This document shows positions 6,239-44,536 of a stretch of DNA of 59,058 nucleotides, one piece after another. The notes under the pieces are model-generated. The model had not been told where the DNA came from. It ran no database searches and saw only the letters and a list, made by a program, of their open reading frames with translations. Each line of letters begins with the position of its first letter. Within the stretch, counting starts at the first letter, position 1. The position numbers and the translations under genes were made by a program. Source of the stretch: Chloroflexota bacterium (GTDB lineage Bacteria > Chloroflexota > Dehalococcoidia > UBA2979); the NCBI GenBank assembly GCA_003670735.1, contig QWQU01000002.1, positions 1 through 59,058 on the forward strand, written 5' to 3'.

Positions 6239-7473
6239 CGTCCACCCGCCCGTCGAGCGGCGGTCTTCGTCGACTTCGCCGCGGTCTTCGCTGTCTTGCT
6301 CGCAACCTTCGAGGCGGGACGAGCCGGCTTCGAAGTCTTCGCTACGGTACCGCGCGAGGCGGTCGCCTTCTTGGCGACAGGCTTCGCTGCCGGCCGCGTT
6401 GCCGCGGCCTTCTTCGCTGCCGGCTTGGCAGCGGCCTTCGCCGCCGGGCGAGTCGCAGTCGCCTTCTTGGCGACCGGCTTCGCAGCAGCCTTGGCCGCCG
6501 GACGCGGCGCCGCGGCCTTCTTCGCTACGGGCTTCGCAGCAGCCTTCGCCACCGGTCGCGTTGCCGCGGCCTTCTTGGCGACGGGCTTCGCTGCCGGCTT
6601 GGCTGCCGGGCGCGCTGCAGTGGTCTTCTTCGCCGCGGGCTTGGCCGCCGGCTTCGCAGCGGGGCGCGTTGCCACGGCCTTCGCCGCAGGCTTGGCGGCC
6701 GGCTTCGATACCGGCTTGCTCGCGACCTTGGCCGCAGGCTTCGAGGCCACCTTCGCGGCGGGGCGTGCCGGGGCAGCGGCCTTGGCCGCCGGCTTCGCCG
6801 CTGCCTTCGAGGCAGGACGCGTCGGAGCAGCGGGCTTCGGTGCCGGCTTGGGCTTCGCCATCGACTCAGTACCGGTGCGCTTGAGCAGCTTCAGCCACTC
6901 CGCGTCGACCTTCTTCTGGAAGTCGTCGAGGCCGCCCGAGTTGTCGAGCTTCACGTACGCGTGCTCGGAACGCTCCTTGTTGGAGAGCTGCGAGTCGATA
7001 CGAGCCTGTGCCTGGTCAGCAGTCAGACCGTTGCGAGCCACGATGCGGTCTCGCGCCACTTCGGGCTCGACCGTCACGACCCACACCTCGTCCACGAGGT
7101 CGAACCAGTTGGCCTCAACCAGCACCGCGGCCTCGAGCACGATGTGCACGTTCTTATCGCGGCGCTTGATCTCGTTGACCTCTTCGTGGGCCAAACGACG
7201 AATCTCTGGCCAGACGATGTTGGTCAGGCGCTCCATCTGGTCGGGACGGCCAAAGACCTTCCCGCCAAGGAGCTGCCGGTTAATCGTCCCGTCCGCGGCG
7301 ACAATGTCGTGCCCGAACTCGTTGACGACGGCCTCGAAGCCCGGCGTACCCGGCTCGTAGACCCGGTGGCCGACGCGGTCAGCGTCGATGACAAGGGCGC
7401 CAGCCTCGCGCAGCCAGTTGGCTGCGGTCGACTTCCCAGAAGCAATACCGCCAGTAAGCCCAATAACAGTCAT
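6235..7473 (-). CDS. coaE: dephospho-CoA kinase fused to a ~208-aa Ala/Lys/Pro-rich basic C-terminal tail
   Basis: I place the start at ATG 7473 ([21 protein letters not shown].., P-loop GxxxxGKS), not at the track start 7572. About 200 aa form the CoaE fold. From ..[12 protein letters not shown].. onward the protein is AKP repeats such as [17 protein letters not shown]. Confidence 0.8.
6238..6861 (-). repeat. in-frame degenerate tandem repeats (~17-18 codons) encoding the AKP-rich tail
   Basis: The units [19 protein letters not shown] / [18 protein letters not shown] / [18 protein letters not shown] / [14 protein letters not shown] are visible in translation. At DNA level the motif gccgccggcttcgc recurs. 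The 673-aa plus-strand ORF 5339..7360 is its antisense shadow. Confidence 0.7.
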
Positions 7474-19777: not shown

Positions 19778-20428
19778 TCAGTCGCGAGGCTTGCGCACGA
19801 CCCACGTCTGCGCCAGGTGGTCGTGCCACGTCCGCCGCTCGCGGTCGAACAGCGCCCACAAGAACCCGAGGAATACCGGCAGCTCGCTCGCCAGGGTGAA
19901 CGCCGCACGAGTGAGCCCGCGTCGGATCCCCGGCGCCTTGCCCTCGGCATCCACGACGCGCAGCCCGAACAGCCACTTGCCGGGACTCCAGCCAACAACG
20001 CACCACGGCCAGCGCACCAGCACTTCGACGACATAGAGGATCGGCACATACGGCTGCATCGCGCGCTGCGTCTCCGCGAACACCGTCGCGATGTCCGCGT
20101 TGGGGTCGACGTTCACCGCGACCCCGAGCAGCGTCGCCACGAAGCCGAACACCATCGAGAGCACGAACTCATCGACCAGGAACGCCCCCACCCGCAGGTG
20201 CCACGGCGCAACGGTCAGTCCGAGGTCGGTCAGTGGGTTCGTCGGCCCCTCAGCCGCCAGCATTGTCGGCGGCGGGGTTCGCATTGGCGGCGCACCCAAT
20301 GCGCCATCACCGAGCCACGACGGCCCGGAATATCCGAGTGGGGGCCGCACACGAGGCGCGGGCACAACAGGTGCGCTAGGTGCGTGCAATTCGCCGGCGT
20401 CACTCGTCACGCGTGCTCCGCAATCCAC
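19778..20428 (-). CDS. RDD-family membrane protein
   Basis: The N-terminus is Pro-rich. It is followed by ..HLRVGAFLVDEFVLSMVF.. and a C-terminal ..DRERRTWHDHLAQTWVV.., typical of RDD domains. The start is uncertain because 20428 overlaps the upstream gene by 22 nt. Internal Met residues lie at MRTPPPTM and MLAAEG. Confidence 0.6.
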   Translation of the reverse strand: MDCGARVTSDAGELHAPSAPVVPAPRVRPPLGYSGPSWLGDGALGAPPMRTPPPTMLAAEGPTNPLTDLGLTVAPWHLRVGAFLVDEFVLSMVFGFVATLLGVAVNVDPNADIATVFAETQRAMQPYVPILYVVEVLVRWPWCVVGWSPGKWLFGLRVVDAEGKAPGIRRGLTRAAFTLASELPVFLGFLWALFDRERRTWHDHLAQTWVVRKPRD

Positions 20429-23222: not shown

Positions 23223-23504
23223 AGACCAGGCTCCTTAAGCCCCCGATGACGCTATGGGTTGCGGGGGTTCAGGCAGGATATGGTGCGCCCCAACGGCCCG
23301 GCAACCCGACAGCAACGTTCGAGCCACCCCGCGTGAGGCACCACACCAGGCGCCCGCACCAACCGCGCCACAGTGGCGCGTCCACCTACCGCCCCTCGAG
23401 GCAGCCCCGCACGCCGACGACCAACCGGCATGCGCCCGCCCCGCCTGTCCCTCTCAGCACCACTCGCCGACCAAAGCCGCCCGAGCAGCTCACCAATGTC
23501 CTTG

Positions 23505-23800
23505 GACACTCCCCCGCCGGCGAAAGCGAAGCCCTCCCACGACCGCAGCGCGAATCCGCTCCGAGCGGAGGCGAAGCCCACTCAAAACTGCCGGCAGGCG
23601 ACGTTCCGAGCGACAAGGCGAACCACTTCCGAGCGGAACAGAGCCTTCCGAACGTCTGGCGAAGCCTGCCTCGCCCGCCGAAAGTCAGAACCGAGCAGAG
23701 TGAAGCCTTCCGAGCCGGTGATGCCGGGTCGAGCACGAGGCGAAGCCACTACCGAGCGGAGCAAGGCCGCCGGAGTGACGGGCTTCGCCCGTCGAGAGCA
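23505..23800 (+). repeat. degenerate tandem units CCGAGCGGA-N-GGCGAAGCC (at least 7) in an ORF-free region
   Basis: Units start near 23561, 23606, 23629, 23648, 23691, 23710 and 23753. Each carries a GGC-GAA-GCC type mini-hairpin or a variant of it. No convincing coding frame exists on either strand. Confidence 0.5.
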
Positions 23801-24000
23801 GGAGCGCGAGGGCGCAGCCCTCGCACAAGGGCGGGCGGGTGGGCGAAACACTGTCCGGGCGCGACAAGCGGCGCAGCCGCCCGCGCCCCGGCCTCGGCAA
23901 CGCCGAGCCGTCCGGCAGCGACCACCGCACACCAAGACAAGCTCACGAACCGACAAGACCGAGACAAATCGCAGGGCGAAAGAGGCGAAGCCTCGCCTCT
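23801..24000 (+). repeat. structured intergenic repeat, copy A
   Basis: GGAGC-GCGAGGGC-gca-GCCCTCGC-ACAAGGGCGGGCGGGTGGGCGAAACACTGT-H2-H3-CCGTCCGGCAGCGACCAC-spacer-GAGGCGAAGCCTC. It aligns with the copies at 33467, 36849 and 40778. Confidence 0.7.
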
Positions 24001-24661
24001 AGCCCTCGATGTTCCGCAGCAGCGTCGCCAGCTCGTCGTGCTCGGCGAGATAGGCGAGGTCACCCGGGGTGCGGCTATCGTCCGCCCGCGCGTTCGGGTC
24101 CGCACCTCGGTCGAGGAGGATCTGCACGATCTCCTCGTTCCCCATCACCGCCGCCAGGTGCAGCGGCGTATAGCCGTGCGACTCCACTGCGCCGATGTTG
24201 GCCCCGCGGTCGAGCAGCAACGTGACCGTCGAGGCATGCCGGCCACCGACCGCCGCATGCAGCGCGTCATGCTCGGCGTCGTTCCGAGAGATCGCCTCGA
24301 GATCAGCCCCGCGCTCGATCAGCAGCGCGCACGCCTCGGAGCGCCCGAACCAGGCCGAGCGGTGCAGCAGCGTGTAGCCATCGAGTGCAAACGAGGTGGC
24401 GAGCTGCGGCCGAGCATCGAGATACCAGCGCAGCGCCTCGACCTCGCCGAGCGCCGCCGCCTCGTCGGCCGTCGGCCGCGGGTGCAGGTCCAGCAAGATG
24501 TTCAGCGGGAAGTTTCGAGCTCGGTACATCGCCGTGAGAATCGGAGAATCGGCATCGCCGTCCACCCCGACGACCAGCGACGGATCACCAGCCAGGACGT
24601 CGCGGACAAAGTCCTCGTCGTCCTGCATGATCGCTTCGCGGAGTTCCTCAAGCGTGGCCAT
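23999..24661 (-). CDS. ankyrin-repeat protein
   Basis: 220 aa with several ANK units (..GYTPLHLAAVMGNEEIVQILLDRGADPNARADDSRTPGDLA..). Confidence 0.85.
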   Translation of the reverse strand: MATLEELREAIMQDDEDFVRDVLAGDPSLVVGVDGDADSPILTAMYRARNFPLNILLDLHPRPTADEAAALGEVEALRWYLDARPQLATSFALDGYTLLHRSAWFGRSEACALLIERGADLEAISRNDAEHDALHAAVGGRHASTVTLLLDRGANIGAVESHGYTPLHLAAVMGNEEIVQILLDRGADPNARADDSRTPGDLAYLAEHDELATLLRNIEG

Positions 24662-33180: not shown

Positions 33181-33466
33181 GCGCGCAGTCTCGTCGTTGT
33201 CCGGGCTCCCCCTGATCAGGAAGACCACGTACTCCCCCCGCGGGAAACCCCGACGAACCACCGCAGAACGCCTGACTTCGTCGGTGCACCTGCTGCCGCT
33301 CAACGTCTGATCCACACACCTAGCGACGTGTGCGCGCACACCTCGAACATGCACCGAGCATTCCAATCGCACGACACATCCGAGGCATCCCGCCACACAA
33401 CCGAGCGTCATCCAGTAGTCATGCCCGGGCTCACGACTCCGACGGGGTTCGGGGCGAAGCACGAGA

Positions 33467-33654
33467 GGAGCGCGAGGGCGCAGCCCTCGCACAAGGGCGG
33501 GAGGGTGGGCGAAGCACTGTCCGGGCGCCGCCAGCGCCCCGGCCTCGAGCGCAGCTCGCAGCTCGAGCCGTCCGGCAGCGGCAACACATGCCACCTCGAA
33601 CGATGCGTATACAGAGACCGAAACAAGAAGCTGGGCGAAAAGAGGCGAAGCCTC
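33467..33654 (+). repeat. structured intergenic repeat, copy B
   Basis: It has the same architecture as copy A. The H1 loop is gca and the G-tract is GGGCGGGAGGGTGGG. H2 is CCGGGCGC/GCGCcCCGG and H3 is CTCGAGC/GCTCGAG. The tail GCTGGGCGAAAAGAGGCGAAGCCTC overlaps the CBS gene stop. Confidence 0.7.
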
Positions 33655-34102
33655 AGGCGACGTTCCGGTCCGGCAGCGCCGAGCTAAGCAGTCCGCGCAT
33701 CAGATCGTTAGACGTCACGATCCCAATCACCAGACCGCGCTCATCCACCACCGGCAAACACGAGATATGCCGGTCGATCAGCGTCGCCGCCGCCTCCAAC
33801 ACACTCGCCTCGGGCCCGATCGTCGCCGGGTGATACGTCGCCACCTGGAACACCGGCTTCAGCAACGTCCGACTGTCACGAGGCTGCTCCCCGATCGTCC
33901 CCAGGAACGGTGAGATCGCCCGCAGCACATCGCGGTCAGACACGACCGCAACCGGCTTCCCATCCGCCAGGATCAGCAGGTGATGCACACCACGCGTATG
34001 GAGCAGATCGCGCGCCGTCAGCAGCGAAGCCTCGGCCTCAATCGTCACCACCGGTGACGACATCACTGCCCCAACCGTGAGCTCATCAAGTCCAAACGTC
34101 AT
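33653..34102 (-). CDS. CBS-domain pair protein
   Basis: 149 aa with two CBS motifs (..VMSSPVVTIEAEASLLTARDLLHTRGVHHLLIL.. and ..LIDRHISCLPVVDERGLVIGIVTSNDLM..). Confidence 0.8.
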   Translation of the reverse strand: MTFGLDELTVGAVMSSPVVTIEAEASLLTARDLLHTRGVHHLLILADGKPVAVVSDRDVLRAISPFLGTIGEQPRDSRTLLKPVFQVATYHPATIGPEASVLEAAATLIDRHISCLPVVDERGLVIGIVTSNDLMRGLLSSALPDRNVA

Positions 34103-36697: not shown

Positions 36698-36848
36698 CGG
36701 GACTCCCCCTGATCGTTCCCCGCCGACACCCCGACGAGCACAGCCCGCACCACATCCAATGATCCGAGTGCGACTCGGGCGGCGAACGCGGCCCCACACC
36801 AATGCATCGAGTACGACTCCAGCGAGCGCGCAGCGCCTCGCTCCGAAC

Positions 36849-37047
36849 GGGAGCGCGAGGGCTTTGCCCTCGCACAAGGGCGGGCGGGTGGGCGAAACAC
36901 TGTCCGGGCACGGCGGGCGCAGCCCGCACCGTGCCCCGGCCTCGGCGCAAGCCGAGCCGACCGGCGGCGACCACAGCACGCCACCCACGCCGCACAACGA
37001 CAAGATCGAGACAAGACGCTGGGCGAAGAGGGCCGAAGGCCCCTACC
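36849..37047 (+). repeat. structured intergenic repeat, copy C
   Basis: The H1 loop is ttt and the G-tract is GGGCGGGCGGGTGGG (36878..36892). H2 is CCGGGCACGG/CCGTGcCCCGG and H3 is CTCGGC/GCCGAG. The tail is GCTGGGCGAAGAG-GGGCCgaaGGCCC. It ends 9 nt before the start of the TauE/SafE-family gene. Confidence 0.7.
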
Positions 37048-39925: not shown

Positions 39926-40693
39926 ATGGAGCGCCCCACCGGACCCATTGAAATCGGACTGCGACATCCGCTGTACGACGCCGCCCGCAAACTGGATCGA
40001 GCACGAGAGCATATCGAAGCACTCGATGCGGAGATCAACGCCTTCTTCGATAGCAAGCCGTTCTCGTTTGAGAAGGAGCTCAATCCGGAAGGCACCCACC
40101 AGATCTACCGCGTGAAGATCTTGGCGGTTCCAGATCAGCGGCTCACGCTCATTTTGGGCGATGCCATTCACAATCTGCGGGCCACACTTGACTACCTCGT
40201 TGGGCAGTGCGTGCTTGCGGAAACGCCGAACGGAGACAACAACCGCAGCCAGTTCCCGATACTTCGAAATGAGGCGGACTGGGGCAAATGGCGCGTGAAG
40301 CAGATGGTCAAAGGCATCAGCGATTACGCCCTCCGGATGGGGTTAGGAGAGGGCTGGAAGGTTGATTGGTTCAGTGAAGACGAGGGGAAGGTACTCGTCC
40401 AAGTGTTCACAATTCCGCTCGCCGATGATCCCGAAAACACATTCGAACCCACGCTTCATTTCGAAGTGAGCTTTGGCGAAGTCGGAGAACTGGTCGGGAG
40501 CGAACGTCGAGGAATTGGGACACCCTACCTCTGGCAACTTCATGAGGTCATACGTGACCACGTGTTCCCGGCATTTGTCGGCCTTGGGTACTTCGTAGAG
40601 AAGAACATCGAACCCACTCAGGGCATTCAAGAGATCGTGATTGGACCTGCCGACGCGCCGCCGTCGGTTCGAACGATCTTGCCGCATACCTAA
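39926..40693 (+). CDS. hypothetical protein in a visibly lower-GC segment
   Basis: 255 aa. Third-codon positions are often A/T, unlike the neighbours. No TM segment or signal peptide is evident. The motif ..LILGDAIHNLRATLDYLVGQ.. is present, but I can assign no family with confidence. Confidence 0.55.
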   Translation: MERPTGPIEIGLRHPLYDAARKLDRAREHIEALDAEINAFFDSKPFSFEKELNPEGTHQIYRVKILAVPDQRLTLILGDAIHNLRATLDYLVGQCVLAETPNGDNNRSQFPILRNEADWGKWRVKQMVKGISDYALRMGLGEGWKVDWFSEDEGKVLVQVFTIPLADDPENTFEPTLHFEVSFGEVGELVGSERRGIGTPYLWQLHEVIRDHVFPAFVGLGYFVEKNIEPTQGIQEIVIGPADAPPSVRTILPHT

Positions 40694-40777
40694 TCGGCTC
40701 GATGTTGAACATCGACCACAGCTTCATCCCGGTCATTCGAGTACGGCTCCAAGGGGGCCGGGGGCAACGCTCCCGGT

Positions 40778-40929
40778 GGGAGCGCGAGGGCGAAGCCCTC
40801 GCATAAGGCGGGCGGGTGGGCGAAATACTGTCCGGCGTCGGCAAGCGGCGCAGCTGTCCGGCGTCGGCAAGCGGCGCAGCCGCCCGACGCCCGGCCGTCG
40901 CGAACGCGACGCCGTCCGACAGCGACCAC
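40778..40929 (+). repeat. structured intergenic repeat, copy D (truncated tail, internal 26-bp duplication)
   Basis: The H1 loop is gaa and the G-tract is GGCGGGCGGGTGGG, with a short first run. TGTCCGGCGTCGGCAAGCGGCGCAGC is duplicated at 40829..40854 and 40855..40880. H2 is CCGGCGTCGG/CCGACGcCCGG and H3 is CGTCGCG/CGCGACG. Confidence 0.7.
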
Positions 40930-40940
40930 ACAACCCCGCG

Positions 40941-42395
40941 CTACAGCTCCGCGTTCGTCGCCGGCGACTCAACAGCTCGAGCCGCCCCCGGCACTGCGCC
41001 AGCCACGCCCGCCAGCACCGCAACACTGAGTAGCGACGCCAACGCGAACATCGCCCCCTGTCCTGCCCCGAGGTGCAAGCACAGCATCACCAACGCAACG
41101 CCAAGTGCCGTCCCTAAGCCCCGTCCCATGTTCAACAACCCGCCGCCGACAGCAGCAGAGCGAGCGGGAATCGCCCCCATGATCGCCGCGTTGTTCGCCG
41201 GAATGAACACACCGAGCCCAAGGCCCAGCACACCGAGCAGCACTGCAATCGCGACGAGCGACTGGCCAACAAACAGCAACCCAACGATCGCAAATGCAGC
41301 GACGGCCGCACCACCAACAGCACGCGAACGCGTGTCAGCACCGCGCAGCCAGCGATTCCCGCCAACAGCCGAGAGCGCGAACCCCGCAGGCAACGCGCTG
41401 ATCGCCAACCCCAGCGCCGCCCCGCCCGCAGCGATCACCTGCGGGAACAACGCCAACGGACCAAACAGCACGAGATATGCCGCCAGCGCACCGAGCAATC
41501 CGACAGACACCCCCGCCGGTCGCAACACTTGTAGATCGAGCAACGGACTCGCCGCACGCAACTCCCGCACCACAAACGCCGCGCTCAACGCGATCGACAA
41601 CACGAACAACGACACCGTGATCACCGGCGACAACCCGAGCCCTGATACCGCGCTGATCGCCAGCAAGAACGCCGTTGACGTACTCGCCAGCAACACCAAC
41701 CCTGGCCAGTCGAATGCACCAAGCGGCGTCCGCTCACGCGTGCGAGGCAACAGGAAGTGTCCCGCGATCAGCGCGACGATCCCGACTGGCACATTCACCC
41801 AGAACACCCACTGCCACCCCGCAGCAAGCACCAGCGCTCCACCAACCGTCGGCCCCAGCGCCAGACCCAGCGCCTGCGCTGCCGCCTGCACACTCAACGC
41901 CTCGCGCATCCGTCCGCGCGCCACGCTCGTCACCACCAGCGCCACGGAGTTCGCCTGCAACAGCGCCGCGCCCACCGCCTGCACCACACGAAATGCGATC
42001 AGCCACGACAACGACGGCGCCAGCGCGCACGCCGCCGACGCTGCCGTGAACACCACAAACCCGTAGAGGTACATCAGCTTGCGGCCGTACGCGTCCGACA
42101 CGCGCCCCGCGCCCGCGACCAGTCCCACCAACGTCACGAGGTACGACAGCGAGATCCACTCGACCGCCGCGAGTGGTGCAGCAAACTGCGCCTGCACTGC
42201 GGGGAACGTCAGCGTCACGATGCTCGCGTCCAGCTGCCCCATGAACGCGCCCATGCACACCGTGCCCACCGCAAGCCATGACGCCAGCGGATGCTCGCGG
42301 ATCGCCGCAGGCCGAGCGTGCTCGACGAACAGTGCGTTTCCAAACATCAGCGCGACATCACTGCGCATCCGACGTTGGAGTACGTCCTTCGTCAT
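40941..42395 (-). CDS. MFS transporter, DHA2 (EmrB/QacA, 14-TM) type
   Basis: 484 aa. ..GTVCMGAFMGQLDASIVTLTFPAVQ.. and ..GRVSDAYGRKLMYLYGF.. are MFS motifs. There are about 14 TMs. The start is uncertain, with ATGs at 42395, 42368 and 42347 and none preceded by a clear SD. Confidence 0.85.
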   Translation of the reverse strand: MTKDVLQRRMRSDVALMFGNALFVEHARPAAIREHPLASWLAVGTVCMGAFMGQLDASIVTLTFPAVQAQFAAPLAAVEWISLSYLVTLVGLVAGAGRVSDAYGRKLMYLYGFVVFTAASAACALAPSLSWLIAFRVVQAVGAALLQANSVALVVTSVARGRMREALSVQAAAQALGLALGPTVGGALVLAAGWQWVFWVNVPVGIVALIAGHFLLPRTRERTPLGAFDWPGLVLLASTSTAFLLAISAVSGLGLSPVITVSLFVLSIALSAAFVVRELRAASPLLDLQVLRPAGVSVGLLGALAAYLVLFGPLALFPQVIAAGGAALGLAISALPAGFALSAVGGNRWLRGADTRSRAVGGAAVAAFAIVGLLFVGQSLVAIAVLLGVLGLGLGVFIPANNAAIMGAIPARSAAVGGGLLNMGRGLGTALGVALVMLCLHLGAGQGAMFALASLLSVAVLAGVAGAVPGAARAVESPATNAEL

Positions 42396-43215
42396 CGTTT
42401 CGTTGAACTCGAGGTGCTAGCCCTTCACGAGGTGCACGCGCAGAGGAAGGTGCAGCGGAACGCTGCCAATCGGCGTCCGCCTCGCTCGCACCGGGCCAGT
42501 CCGCGATGAACACGAAGCGATCGCCGCGCACCACGCTCAAGCGATACTCGACCGGCACCTCGCCGTGCAGGCCGATCCGTTCCACGCGCAGCACCGCTTC
42601 GCCCGTCGGCATGTGCAGCATGCCGCGCTCGTACTCCGTCGGCATCGACGCACGAATCCGCTCGCGCCCGCCCGTCACCTTGAGATCGAGCGAAGCGGCG
42701 AGCAGCTCGTACACCGAGCGCGTGCGCAGGTCCTCGCGGAACAGCGCGCGACCGATCCGCGCCGAGTACCACGACTGCACCAGCATCACCGGCTCGTCAT
42801 CGACGATCCGAAGCCGCTCCAGCGCCGCCAGCTCCTCGTGCGGATCGATCCGCAGCGCGCGCGCCGCAGGCTCGTGTACCTCGAGCTCCTGCTTCAGCAC
42901 ATCGCTGTGCTCGGCGTCACCGCCGTAGCGCTGCACCGACGGCGCGATCGAGTAGATCGTGCGCAGCGGCTGCTCCAACGGCGCGCGCACCACGAACGTC
43001 CCGAGCCCACGATGCCGCTCGATCAGCCCACTCGAACGCAGATCGCGCAGCGCCTCCCGCACCGTGTGCCGAGACACCCCGTACTGCGCGACCAGCGCTT
43101 GCTCCGTCGGAAACGCTCCCGCCTCGCCAGGCTGGAGCTCCCCCGATTCGAGCTGCCGTCGCAGGATCCCGGCGAGCTGCCGCCACATCGGTAGACCACT
43201 GCGTCGTTCCAGCAT
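42358..43215 (-). CDS. GntR-family transcriptional regulator, HutC/UTRA subfamily
   Basis: I place the start at ATG 43215 (MLERRSGLPMWRQLAGILRRQLESGEL..GAFPTEQALVAQYGVSRHTVREALRDL, a winged HTH). The C-terminal UTRA-like region includes ..VYELLAASLDLKVTGGRERIRASMP.. The last ~40 aa look non-native and overlap the MFS start. Confidence 0.85.
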   Translation of the reverse strand: MLERRSGLPMWRQLAGILRRQLESGELQPGEAGAFPTEQALVAQYGVSRHTVREALRDLRSSGLIERHRGLGTFVVRAPLEQPLRTIYSIAPSVQRYGGDAEHSDVLKQELEVHEPAARALRIDPHEELAALERLRIVDDEPVMLVQSWYSARIGRALFREDLRTRSVYELLAASLDLKVTGGRERIRASMPTEYERGMLHMPTGEAVLRVERIGLHGEVPVEYRLSVVRGDRFVFIADWPGASEADADWQRSAAPSSARAPREGLAPRVQRNDDEGRTPTSDAQ

Positions 43216-43244
43216 CGCCCGCCTCCAAGGCCTCAGTGGCACTC

Positions 43245-43260
43245 AATTGTACGGACAATT
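43245..43260. promoter_or_regulatory. inverted repeat AATTGT-acgg-ACAATT in the divergent gntR promoter region
   Basis: Seen directly in the sequence. It lies 30 nt upstream of the gntR start, at the edge of a locally AT-rich stretch. Confidence 0.35.
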
Positions 43261-43336
43261 CAAGACTTGAAAATCGCCTGCATTCCGATATGAATTCGAG
43301 AAATGACCGGACAAGTTCAGAGCATGTACCTGCTCA

Positions 43337-43358
43337 ATTTGTTTCACGTGAAACAAAT
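43337..43358. promoter_or_regulatory. perfect 22-bp palindrome ATTTGTTTCAC|GTGAAACAAAT, candidate operator
   Basis: A perfect inverted repeat in the AT-rich intergenic region between the gntR-MFS operon and the SLT/LytM gene. It is GT..AC-rich, like GntR-family operators. Confidence 0.5.
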
Positions 43359-43450
43359 GATCTAACGCTGCTGATCAGGGGTTCCTGGTCGAGGCCGCGG
43401 GGGACTCCCTATGCGGATCCGTCGAGGCCGACCGATAGGCTAGTCGGGCG

Positions 43451-44536
43451 ATGCCGGTCGACCCCGTCAGCTCCCCCAGCTCGGCCTATCCGCAGGCCAC
43501 CCCCACCCCGCCACCCTCGAGGCGAGACTTCGCCGCGGTCCTCGCGACCCAGCTCGACGAGCCGCGCTCCGACATCGCCCAGGTCCGCGCCGAGATCGCC
43601 GCGATCCGCAGCGGCCGCCCGCCCGCCTCCTCGGCCCCCTCCCGCACCACCTCGAGTAGTGGCGAGACGCTCGCCCAGAAGCTCCAGAACTGGAGCGCCC
43701 ACGGCACCGGCCCGGACGACCAGTACGGATGGCGAGTCCTCACCCGCGCCTACGGCGAGGACGTCGCCCCCGGCTTCGGCACCCTGTTCGAGCGCCAGAT
43801 CAACCAGGAGTCAGGCTTCAACCCCGAGGTCGTCCTCGGGCAGCGGAAGTCGTCCGCCGGCGCCGAGGGCATCGCACAGCTGATGCCGCAGTTCTATCCG
43901 GGCGTCGATCGCACTGATCCGCAGGCCTCCCTTGCCGCTGCGGCGGACTCGATGCGGCACTACTTGCAGGCGTTCGATGGGGACGCGCGCAAGGCGCTCG
44001 CCTCGTACAACGCGGGGATGGGACGGGTGCAGCAGCTCGTGGCGGCGCACGGGGCGAACTGGGAGCAGGCACTACCCCTCGAGACGAAGCAGTACCTGGG
44101 GGCGATCCTCGGGGATACGAATGGGCGGATCGTGGCTCGCACCGGCTCGAGTGCCGGGGCGGGGGTGTTCGGCGGGCGCGGGGCGGGCGGGGTGCTGACC
44201 TCGCCGCTGGACCGCGTGATCGCGAAGCTGCGCGACGGCGATGGCCTCGCGCTGCGGGCGCTGGCGGGCGCAGACGTGCGCGCACCGGCGGATGGCGTGG
44301 TGACGAGCATCGGCGCGAGCCCGCTGGGGTCATTGCTGACGCTCGACAACGGGAACGGGTGGAGCACGACGCTCGACGGACTCGGGAGGCTGACGCCGAA
44401 GCTCGGCGATCATGTCTCGCGCGGGAGCGTGCTGGGCACGCTGGCGGGCGGCGACGGGATGGAGACGGCGATGCGGCTGGGGGTCCTCCTCAATGGTCGG
44501 GCGGTGGATCCGCGCTCGTTCCTGCTGGGCAGCTAA
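43451..44536 (+). CDS. lytic transglycosylase (SLT) domain fused to a degenerate LytM/M23 domain
   Basis: 361 aa. The SLT motifs are ..QINQESGFNPEVV.. and ..AEGIAQLMPQFY.. The C-terminal M23-like fold (..APADGVVTSIG..LLTLDNGNGWSTTLDGLG..GSVLGTLAG..) lacks the HxxxD and HxH metal ligands. No signal peptide or TM is evident at the N-terminus. Confidence 0.7.
   Translation: MPVDPVSSPSSAYPQATPTPPPSRRDFAAVLATQLDEPRSDIAQVRAEIAAIRSGRPPASSAPSRTTSSSGETLAQKLQNWSAHGTGPDDQYGWRVLTRAYGEDVAPGFGTLFERQINQESGFNPEVVLGQRKSSAGAEGIAQLMPQFYPGVDRTDPQASLAAAADSMRHYLQAFDGDARKALASYNAGMGRVQQLVAAHGANWEQALPLETKQYLGAILGDTNGRIVARTGSSAGAGVFGGRGAGGVLTSPLDRVIAKLRDGDGLALRALAGADVRAPADGVVTSIGASPLGSLLTLDNGNGWSTTLDGLGRLTPKLGDHVSRGSVLGTLAGGDGMETAMRLGVLLNGRAVDPRSFLLGS

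Follow-up and report, generated by a model that had tools for sequence, protein, structure and literature searches.

Why should a bacterial chromosome carry several long, multi-hairpin repeats between unrelated genes, all of them pointing the same way? The question is raised by a 59,058-nucleotide (nt) stretch of DNA from an uncultured Chloroflexota bacterium (contig QWQU01000002.1, hereafter the window), in which four copies, A to D, of such a repeat lie on the + strand when read on their G-rich strand. A sequence-only reading of this DNA had noticed these four same-orientation copies, and their number, strand and positions stand: a degenerate 25-nt pattern covering the first hairpin (H1) and the beginning of the core, GCGAGGGCNNNGCCCTCGCAYAAGG, matches the window four times against 0.02 expected from shuffles, and repeat finding clusters A, B, C and D into a single family. 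Taken as a whole, the evidence favours mobile DNA over an RNA gene, and the repeat is, as far as its sequence can tell, a lineage-specific, replication-oriented, multi-hairpin insertional repeat that matches no Rfam family.

The repeat is inserted DNA, since at site A two close relatives retain the empty site. The spacer between the Ank gene and the aminotransferase gene measures 776 bp in the window, against 103 bp in L031 (91% aminotransferase identity) and 119 bp in L032 (85%), where L numbers (L001-L032) designate contigs or loci of related or same-organism assemblies that were compared with the window. In the relatives CTCGAA-GTTGCTGTCGGGTTGCCGGG follows the stop codon almost directly, and in the window it is found ~665 nt further on. 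The added DNA is thus delimited as follows.

23336-23998: extra DNA at site A relative to the close relatives, ~665 nt, from the empty-site comparison with L031 and L032.

The extra DNA starts straight after the stop codon, TAG being followed by AGGCGAGGCTTCGCCTC, and the small hairpin at the tail of copy A is therefore part of the insert, not a terminator native to the site. Comparison of filled and empty site reveals no target-site duplication at A, the junctions being TAG with AGGCGAGG... and ...GGTGG with CTCGAACGTTGCTG. Only a few bases separate the stop codon from a conserved promoter-like TTGCCG...TATCCT of the next gene, and the insertion point lies among them. This motif, with 17 or 18 nt between its halves, is found upstream of the branched-chain aminotransferase gene at 23230-23320 of the window, 8900-8990 of L031 and 9910-10000 of L032; common to three organisms, it is a likely promoter and marks the downstream edge of the neutral insertion window at A. 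The insert is composite: the element accounts for ~260 nt, and the other ~400 nt are unique among all DNA compared (blastn finds nothing else). In the unique part, about five degenerate 'TCCGAGCGG...GGCGAAGCC' modules at 23500-23760 resemble the left-end module of the element; they were seen by eye, Tandem Repeats Finder giving nothing above threshold on the left flank of A. The non-coding 23336-23760 also holds a G-rich stretch without a match in any compared locus. At site B the relatives at 77-82% are too diverged for an alignment that would give exact boundaries.

The second line of evidence is orientation. Within a contig all copies lie on one strand (four in the window, two in L008, three in L011, four in L012 and two in L013), and this strand is related to base composition. 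When the elements are masked and GC skew is taken along the element's G-rich strand, the surrounding skew is negative in 7/7 contigs (-0.06 to -0.16), and the G-rich strand sits on the locally C-rich strand in all 13 independent copies, orthologs being counted once, from 6 independent contigs. Left of ~43.4 kb in the window the skew is -0.100 for + strand genes and -0.105 for - strand genes, and right of this point it is +0.061 and +0.072, respectively; being independent of the coding strand, it is an asymmetry of the replication type. Independent assemblies of the same organism show the switch too, as does the syntenic locus of a sister organism, and beyond the switch there are no copies in the window's 15.6 kb nor in the 16.5 kb of the sister locus L029. 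If, as is usual, the leading strand is the G-rich one, the element's C-rich strand lies on the lagging-strand template. Such constant polarity relative to chromosome replication suggests spread as single-stranded DNA, not an RNA gene. Gene direction explains the orientation less than skew does. In 8 of 11 independent loci the tail touches or overlaps a stop codon that belongs to a gene on the opposite strand; copy C, L007 and the L012 cluster have no upstream opposite-strand gene, yet they show the same skew polarity. Moreover, because only ~61% of the genes in the left part of the window are leading-strand genes, an orientation linked to genes alone should have produced some copies of opposite skew, and none of the 13 is of this kind.

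The element itself has a fixed order: GGAGC, H1, a 30-nt G-rich box, H2, H3 and a 3' box that begins CCGTCCGG.... This order had been proposed from the sequence alone and is recovered on reading the four copies, as are the 8-bp H1 stem with its loops (gca/gca/ttt/gaa), the H2 and H3 arms and a bulged C in H2 (4/4). The extent, however, had been drawn too short: to the core of ~130 nt an alignment that includes the flanks adds a conserved CATCGAGTACGACTCC motif and a variable hairpin, H0, on the left and, on the right of A-C, a CA-rich spacer, a GGGCGAA motif and the small tail hairpin that closes the element, which in full measures ~230-260 nt. The G-rich box between H1 and H2 includes GGGCGGGCGGGTGGG and carries a G3-N1-G3-N1-G3-N1-G3 run. 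Copy D ends without the tail module, and 26 nt within its H2 are duplicated in tandem (40832-40857). All four copies are intergenic, as had been stated; that they bracket gene blocks holds as a description, with no indication that the blocks are units and no sign that the copies delimit gene cassettes. The parts are listed below, with bit scores from a covariance model that was built from ten copies and then run over the related contigs.

23771-24000, + strand: copy A, full element, read on the G-rich strand; 128 bits.
Copy A, left: inverted left module with H0 23778-23794; GGAGC 23801-23805; H1 23806-23824.
Copy A, middle: G-rich box 23825-23854 (G-run 23829-23843); H2 23855-23891 with bulged C; H3 23893-23907.
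Copy A, right: 3' box 23908-23925; CA-rich spacer; GGGCGAA 23974-23980; tail hairpin 23981-24000, overlapping the Ank stop codon at 23999-24001.
33432-33654, + strand: copy B; 93.7 bits; ortholog in the sister organism at L013 5239-5353.
Copy B, left: left motif CACGACTCC 33432-33440; H1 33472-33490; G-rich box 33491-33520.
Copy B, right: short H2 33521-33542; H3 33544-33567, which holds a 7-nt duplication; 3' box 33568-33585; tail hairpin 33642-33654, overlapping the CBS gene stop codon at 33653-33655.
36805-37042, + strand: copy C; 120 bits; flanked by two divergent genes, CxxCxxCC (- strand, start 36697) and TauE (+ strand, start 37056); in L013 the ortholog is at 1774-1902, in L029 at 19914-20042.
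Copy C, left: left motif 36805-36820; H0 36822-36841; H1 36855-36873; G-rich box 36874-36903.
Copy C, right: H2 36904-36939; H3 36941-36956; 3' box 36957-36974; tail hairpin 37030-37042.
40734-40929, + strand: copy D, short-tail form; 110 bits; between the convergent orphan gene (stop 40691-40693) and MFS gene (stop 40941-40943).
Copy D, left: left motif 40734-40750; H0 40758-40776; H1 40784-40802.
Copy D, right: G-rich box 40803-40831 (first G-run only GG); duplication 40832-40857; H2 40858-40894; H3 40896-40911; 3' box 40912-40929.

The stems of this element are maintained by compensation. Pairing statistics were taken from the 13 best copies (four from the window and nine from related metagenome contigs), realigned to the covariance model, which gives 23 pairs and 287 cells. 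In H1-H3, 95.5% of the cells hold standard pairs against 77.9% in column shuffles (0 of 500 shuffles reach the observed value), and pairing drops to 32-46% when partners are slid by 1-3 columns. Changes on both sides occur in 14 of the 23 pairs (46 cells), and one-sided cells of the G-U type number only 3 of 287. H1, for instance, exists as GCGAGGGC/GCCCTCGC, GCGGGGC/GCCCCGC, TGGGGGC/GCCCCCA and GGGGAC/GTCCCC, and H3 alternates among CTCGGC, CTCGAGC and CGTCGC forms. In every copy H2 retains its CCGG(G) foot of 4-5 bp and a single extrahelical C (the bulged C, 13/13 full copies), while its upper stem and inner hairpin are rewritten. The compensatory change first described from the four window copies thus goes well beyond shared ancestry, and since pairing exceeds the shuffles and double changes recur, selection for pairing is real. 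It had been attributed to RNA or single-stranded DNA, and here the covariation gives no preference to RNA: Watson-Crick stems are preserved on either strand and the two strands fold equally well (z -3.8 and -3.2, equal within error), so that covariation cannot tell RNA from single-stranded DNA. G-T and A-C cells are too few on either strand for wobble pairs to decide the strand. The loops of the G-rich strand, with G-N-A triloops closed by C-G in 12/13 H1 hairpins and GNRA-like tetraloops in H3, suggest from their sequence that the G-rich strand is the folding strand. C-G-closed GNA triloops are, however, also a hallmark of stable DNA mini-hairpins. Hairpins of the repetitive extragenic palindromic (REP) sequences, which are read as single-stranded DNA by a Y1 enzyme, likewise keep their complementarity and need a stem irregularity for binding (PMC3333891). 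The family also shows local amplification and slippage, with a tandem trio in L012 and internal duplications in B and D, and deletion variants without the core persist (L012 3932-4043 and L007).

How widely is the repeat distributed? An exact-word scan of JGI metagenomes with a 22-mer of the core finds seven loci, all from freshwater samples, and the covariance-model search that the sequence-only reading had proposed adds six further copies in these freshwater loci, which brings the matches outside the window to 13 in all. The added copies include three in tandem in L012, two deletion variants and the sister-organism orthologs of B and C. The same 22-mer has no match in viral contigs, and none in 185,579 species-representative genomes, among which this lineage is not represented; blastn against plasmids gives no match to the repeat either. 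Without viral-contig or plasmid match, there is no sign of a phage or plasmid origin. The covariance model finds no copies in L014-L022, L031 and L032, the orthologous sites in the 77% and 82% relatives are without the element, and there is no copy in the syntenic DNA of relatives with 82, 77 and 71% MgtE identity or in that of one 85% relative. With related loci at 71-85% identity free of copies in the DNA compared, the family is confined to a narrow group of uncultured freshwater Chloroflexota. A search of the genome collection with the window's MgtE returned only relatives of 44-48% identity, of no use for tracing the element. Short-read or metagenome-assembled genome (MAG) contigs terminate within copies in L004-6, L013, L023 and L024, the behaviour expected of a dispersed repeat. 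The window, itself a complete MAG contig, shares identical proteins with ENA 'MEHR18-2...' assemblies, Logan assemblies and the NCBI MAG GCA_947472035.1, and for three different window proteins many homologs carry the label Chloroflexota or 'Dehalococcoidia bacterium', which gives reasonable support to Chloroflexota but not to any finer placement. In the orthologs of copy C, H1 and the core are identical at 49 of 55 positions, against 74-87% identity at third codon positions, and H2 has been rewritten yet stays paired, resembling the H2 of other copies in the same metagenome. At the level of sequence, this above-neutral conservation points to constraint or to homogenisation among copies.

By what means might such an element spread? 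We tentatively favour, at somewhat under an even chance, a non-autonomous element that an enzyme of the IS200/IS605 or REP-RAYT kind recognises by its hairpins and mobilises in single-stranded form. Strict polarity, the lack of terminal inverted repeats and target-site duplications, sub-terminal hairpins, an extrahelical base, compensation by Watson-Crick pairs only, non-autonomy and tandem amplification together give the family its resemblance to elements moved by Y1/HUH enzymes. IS200/IS605 elements are oriented by the lagging-strand template (PMC5027513), and the same tie of orientation to replication strand is found here in 13/13 copies if the leading strand is taken as G-rich. REP sequences and bacterial interspersed mosaic elements (BIME) are thought to be spread by related enzymes (PMC3333891, PMC6006769). 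We infer that a structure-specific enzyme, its gene lying elsewhere in the genome, would recognise one strand of the element while this is single-stranded at the replication fork; most likely it would be a Y1/HUH enzyme of the IS200/IS605-TnpA or REP-associated (RAYT) kind. It would recognise the hairpins, and in particular H2, whose 4-5 bp foot and extrahelical base do not vary, so that stem sequences may drift as long as they remain Watson-Crick paired. All copies would share one polarity because one strand is active and one template strand is exposed in replication, the C-rich strand of the element presumably lying on the lagging-strand template. Insertions would survive in the short neutral stretch that separates a stop codon from the promoter that follows, and there the inserted GC-rich hairpins and TTTCGCCC-type T-runs on the gene-sense strand would probably end or insulate transcription of the upstream gene.

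Several observations weigh against this scenario. No Y1/HUH, integrase or other transposase gene is called in the window or beside any copy, and the RAYT or IS200-like transposase that the sequence-only reading had proposed to look for is likewise missing among the genes called in ~300 kb of window and related DNA. There is no conserved 4-5 nt target visible beside one end, which differs from IS200/IS605, and the hairpins near the two ends (the tail on one side, H0/H1 on the other) are not clearly related in sequence, unlike those at IS200/IS605 ends. As ~400 of the ~665 nt at site A are unrelated DNA, this event was no simple single insertion. The orientation could result from selection after insertion, the assignment to the lagging-strand template assumes a G-rich leading strand, and the sample is small (the 13 independent copies in 6 contigs). 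Finally, the above-neutral conservation of H1 and the core would also count against mobility as the explanation if it reflected a host function. A rather improbable extension is that the repeat represents an undescribed class of single-strand mobile element in which the multi-hairpin interior is a functional scaffold. By analogy with the omega-RNAs of TnpB/IscB in IS200/IS605 derivatives, the scaffold may be guide-RNA-like, made from the C-rich strand with its 3' end running into flanking DNA; or it may act as DNA structure, its bulged hairpins and G-quadruplex coupling the element's own copying to the replication fork. If the scaffold reading were true, the strong GC skew that is seen in this clade only and co-occurs with the element might be connected with it.

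The alternatives to a mobile single-stranded DNA differ in which strand they make functional. It is possible, if unlikely, that the element is mainly an RNA on the C-rich, gene-sense strand, a modular hairpin block of the 3' untranslated region that terminates, insulates or stabilises the upstream transcript, as REP/BIME, ERIC, BOX and Correia elements can, and that it spread because this effect was tolerated or useful. The stop codons abutted or overlapped by the tail in 8/11 loci speak for it, as does the C-rich strand itself, on which a hairpin followed by TTTCGCCC recurs after the tail hairpin and, as ACAGTGTTTCGCCC, after H2. The tails of subfamily-2 copies even resemble canonical terminators of the kind that the genome itself uses (e.g. 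GAGGCCCCCGCGTGAGCGGGGGCCTC-GTTTTGTGTG), and the sub-threshold Rfam matches to 3' ends of small RNAs fall on the C-rich strand of the tail. However, a terminator scan returns nothing at copy A and nothing at B-D, the T-runs of the window copies being weak; on the C-rich strand of subfamily-2 tails the hairpin is followed by GTTTTGTGTG or TTTCGTTTTG, and the window copies stay outside the limits of the scan. The polarity kept by C, L007 and the L012 cluster without an upstream gene on the C-rich strand, the absence of opposite-polarity copies (0/13) that ~61% leading-strand genes would predict, and the near absence of G-U pairs also tell against an RNA of this kind, which moreover is silent on how the copies spread. 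A terminator or insulator effect on the upstream gene nevertheless remains plausible from the sequence, whether as a consequence of insertion or as an alternative primary role.

A quite improbable alternative, and the least supported one, places a multi-copy small-RNA gene or structured RNA on the G-rich strand, with H1-H3 as scaffold and the G-run box as a single-stranded or G-quadruplex region. Strong covariation, the GNA triloops of H1 (12/13) and GNRA-like tetraloops of H3, the conservation of H1 and core above third codon positions between orthologs, and a possible short closing stem ACTCC/GGGGT, whose G-T wobble is workable on the G-rich strand only, would all fit such an RNA. Yet the triloops are also typical of stable DNA mini-hairpins, a scan finds no sigma-70-type promoter in or beside the copies, where just ~13 conserved nt lie upstream of H0, no T-run follows any hairpin on the G-rich strand and Rfam holds no relative. 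It also fits poorly with inserted DNA whose presence differs between close relatives, with the persistence of core-deleted variants (L012 3932-4043, L007) and with G-runs that are degraded in 4 of the 5 copies found without the G-run as bait. We give an equally small chance to the idea that polarity results from selection on DNA structure, a G-quadruplex with hairpins being tolerated, or acting as a polar barrier, only with the G-rich strand as leading-strand template, and insertions of the opposite orientation being lost. The G3N1G3N1G3N1G3 run is one base from the known quadruplex aptamer (GGGC)4 (PMC10253491), the polarity rule has no exception in 13 copies, and the element cores make up 3 of just 4 quadruplex motifs in the 59 kb, all on the same strand (0.2-0.3 expected) and none on the other. 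Four runs of at least three G with short loops are intact in A, B, C and most bait-derived copies. Quadruplex folding is nevertheless a prediction from the sequence motif, one or two of the G-runs are shortened in D, L012-4143, L013-1774, L011-795 and L012-7398, which still obey the rule, as does one variant that lacks the G-run box altogether, and the conserved bulged hairpin is left unexplained. A genome-wide avoidance of G-quadruplex motifs was considered as well and is not supported, since expected counts are already near zero.

We therefore return to the mobile single-stranded DNA as the preferred reading, and to the question of whether the repeat belongs to a described family. Rfam offers none, even at permissive thresholds, as the sequence-only reading had supposed when it proposed this comparison: with Rfam release 15 at gathering thresholds only a tRNA is found in the window and likewise in L010-L012, and permissive scans of copy A, of B-D and of one subfamily-2 copy give weak chance matches, none of them on the core. 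Its view that the repeat is neither a REP/BIME nor a miniature inverted-repeat transposable element (MITE) also holds, as the defining features of both are missing. A MITE is rejected because six copies with their flanks show only internal hairpins, with no terminal inverted repeats and no target duplication. The likeness to REP, BIME and REPIN (RAYT) sequences is considerable: these are intergenic, often at gene 3' ends, multi-copy, non-autonomous and locally amplified in tandem; they consist of imperfect palindromes, as H2 taken alone is with its bulge, whose stems vary yet stay complementary and keep a conserved irregularity; and they are lineage-restricted and vertically inherited (PMC3116915). 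In Escherichia coli REP the stem irregularity is required for enzyme binding and cleavage, and the definition of REP includes a conserved GTAG 5' of the foot of the palindrome (PMC3333891). REPs are, however, single palindromes of 30-40 nt, typically in inverted pairs, whereas the unit here is conserved over 130 to ~260 nt, an ordered series of four to six different hairpins (H0, H1, H2, H3 and tail in fixed order) with a conserved 30-nt unpaired G-run box. Neither GTAG nor CTAC is found at the hairpin feet, where the flanks read GGAGC before H1, CACTGT before H2 and GGCC before H3, and GGACGG, GAGGCC and CCTTGT on the other strand. Copies lie in strictly one orientation per replication arm and never in inverted pairs, the sole cluster (L012 3637-4272) being a direct tandem, and no RAYT gene was found among the genes called; REP/BIME membership is rejected on these features.

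With IS200/IS605 insertion sequences and their non-autonomous derivatives (PATE) the repeat shares the lack of terminal inverted repeats and target-site duplications and the sub-terminal hairpins. It differs in having no tnpA or tnpB nearby and an interior that is a conserved multi-hairpin array, not coding remnants. The junctions of most full-length copies are TAG or TGA, i.e. stop codons, and two subfamily-2 copies differ in this. TAG as the insertion target, suggested by 6-7 of 8 junction stops, was rejected: it is the majority stop codon of the window (32/60), and the excess (p ~0.05) was noted post hoc. ERIC/IRU, pneumococcal BOX and Correia elements are similar in being 100-250 nt long, modular with variable or duplicated modules, highly structured and placed between genes. 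They can influence termination or the stability of mRNAs. The repeat differs from Correia and ERIC elements, which are found in either orientation and carry terminal inverted repeats, and it has no sequence similarity to any of these families; we know of no report of ERIC, BOX or Correia elements locked to replication polarity or with a G-quadruplex-type box. The attC sites of integrons are similar as hairpins for recombination in which the foot is conserved, some bases are extrahelical and the top varies; they are used as folded single-stranded DNA, in one orientation and at gene 3' ends. An integron attC was rejected for lack of RYYYAAC/GTTRRRY core sites at the ends and of an integrase nearby; in addition, the repeat has a long conserved core and is spaced at 3-10 kb across mixed-orientation housekeeping genes, not single-gene cassettes. 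A riboswitch or leader was rejected because the downstream genes are unrelated. By analogy, then, the repeat shares the behaviour of IS200/IS605-derived or RAYT-dependent hairpin elements, a likeness that falls short of demonstrated membership.

Most known hairpin-based non-autonomous repeats, such as REP, REPIN and PATE, come from Proteobacteria, haloarchaea and a small number of other cultured groups. The present family would add a structurally distinct one in an uncultured and abundant freshwater lineage of Chloroflexota, with the useful traits of a clean filled-versus-empty site, strict replication polarity and a conserved bulged hairpin from which the partner enzyme can be predicted. It would thereby provide a concrete handle toward a new structure-specific single-strand DNA enzyme. 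In fragmented MAGs it could also indicate the direction of replication, and it accounts for the assembly breaks of this lineage at copy sites. A more general caution is that covariation by itself does not identify RNA.

The skew switch and its surroundings deserve a separate description. The sign change is sharp and falls at 43216-43450 (switch ~43,000-43,500), from ~-0.1/-0.2 to ~+0.07, with origin-like polarity, where a GntR-family gene and an SLT/M23 peptidase gene diverge from an AT-rich spacer. The spacer contains the perfect palindromes TTGTTTCACGTGAAACAA and TTGTACGGACAA but, with one mismatch allowed, no 9-mer of the DnaA-box type; the switch may mark an origin of replication or the edge of an old inversion. 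In L017, L018 and L020, relatives with 71-82% protein identity, GC skew is almost nil (within +/-0.05). It is very strong, 0.1-0.2, in the window organism and its sister (L029, L031), and it is this same narrow clade that carries the repeat. Next to the switch, 39926-43215 comprises the GntR gene, an MFS transporter gene and a 255-aa orphan (no Pfam match, atypical skew of +0.02). The sister and more distant relatives lack this block in the syntenic region, where Flavin_Reduct adjoins the M23 peptidase gene; in the 85% relative an MFS-GntR pair lies elsewhere (L032 16515-18712), near the aminotransferase gene. By sequence comparison, 39926-43215 is a lineage-specific rearrangement or island adjoining the skew switch, with copy D inside.

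The genes next to the copies are unrelated housekeeping genes, and flagellar genes in mixed orientation also lie between copies; a study of freshwater Chloroflexi reports flagellated lineages (PMC6169038). In the 82% relative a coding remnant of a flagellin C terminus lies in the spacer upstream of TauE (L017 12180-12460). The matching site in the window is occupied by copy C and the CxxCxxCC-domain gene, the flagellin neighbourhood being rearranged between relatives. Stop-codon usage in the window is unusual at 67% GC, with TAG 32, TAA 18 and TGA 10 among 60 genes; the sister locus L029 has TAG 12, TGA 8 and TAA 2. Lastly, at 6316-6741 of the window a - strand gene of ~412 aa without a Pfam match contains at least six tandem copies of a 54-nt (18-codon) repeat.

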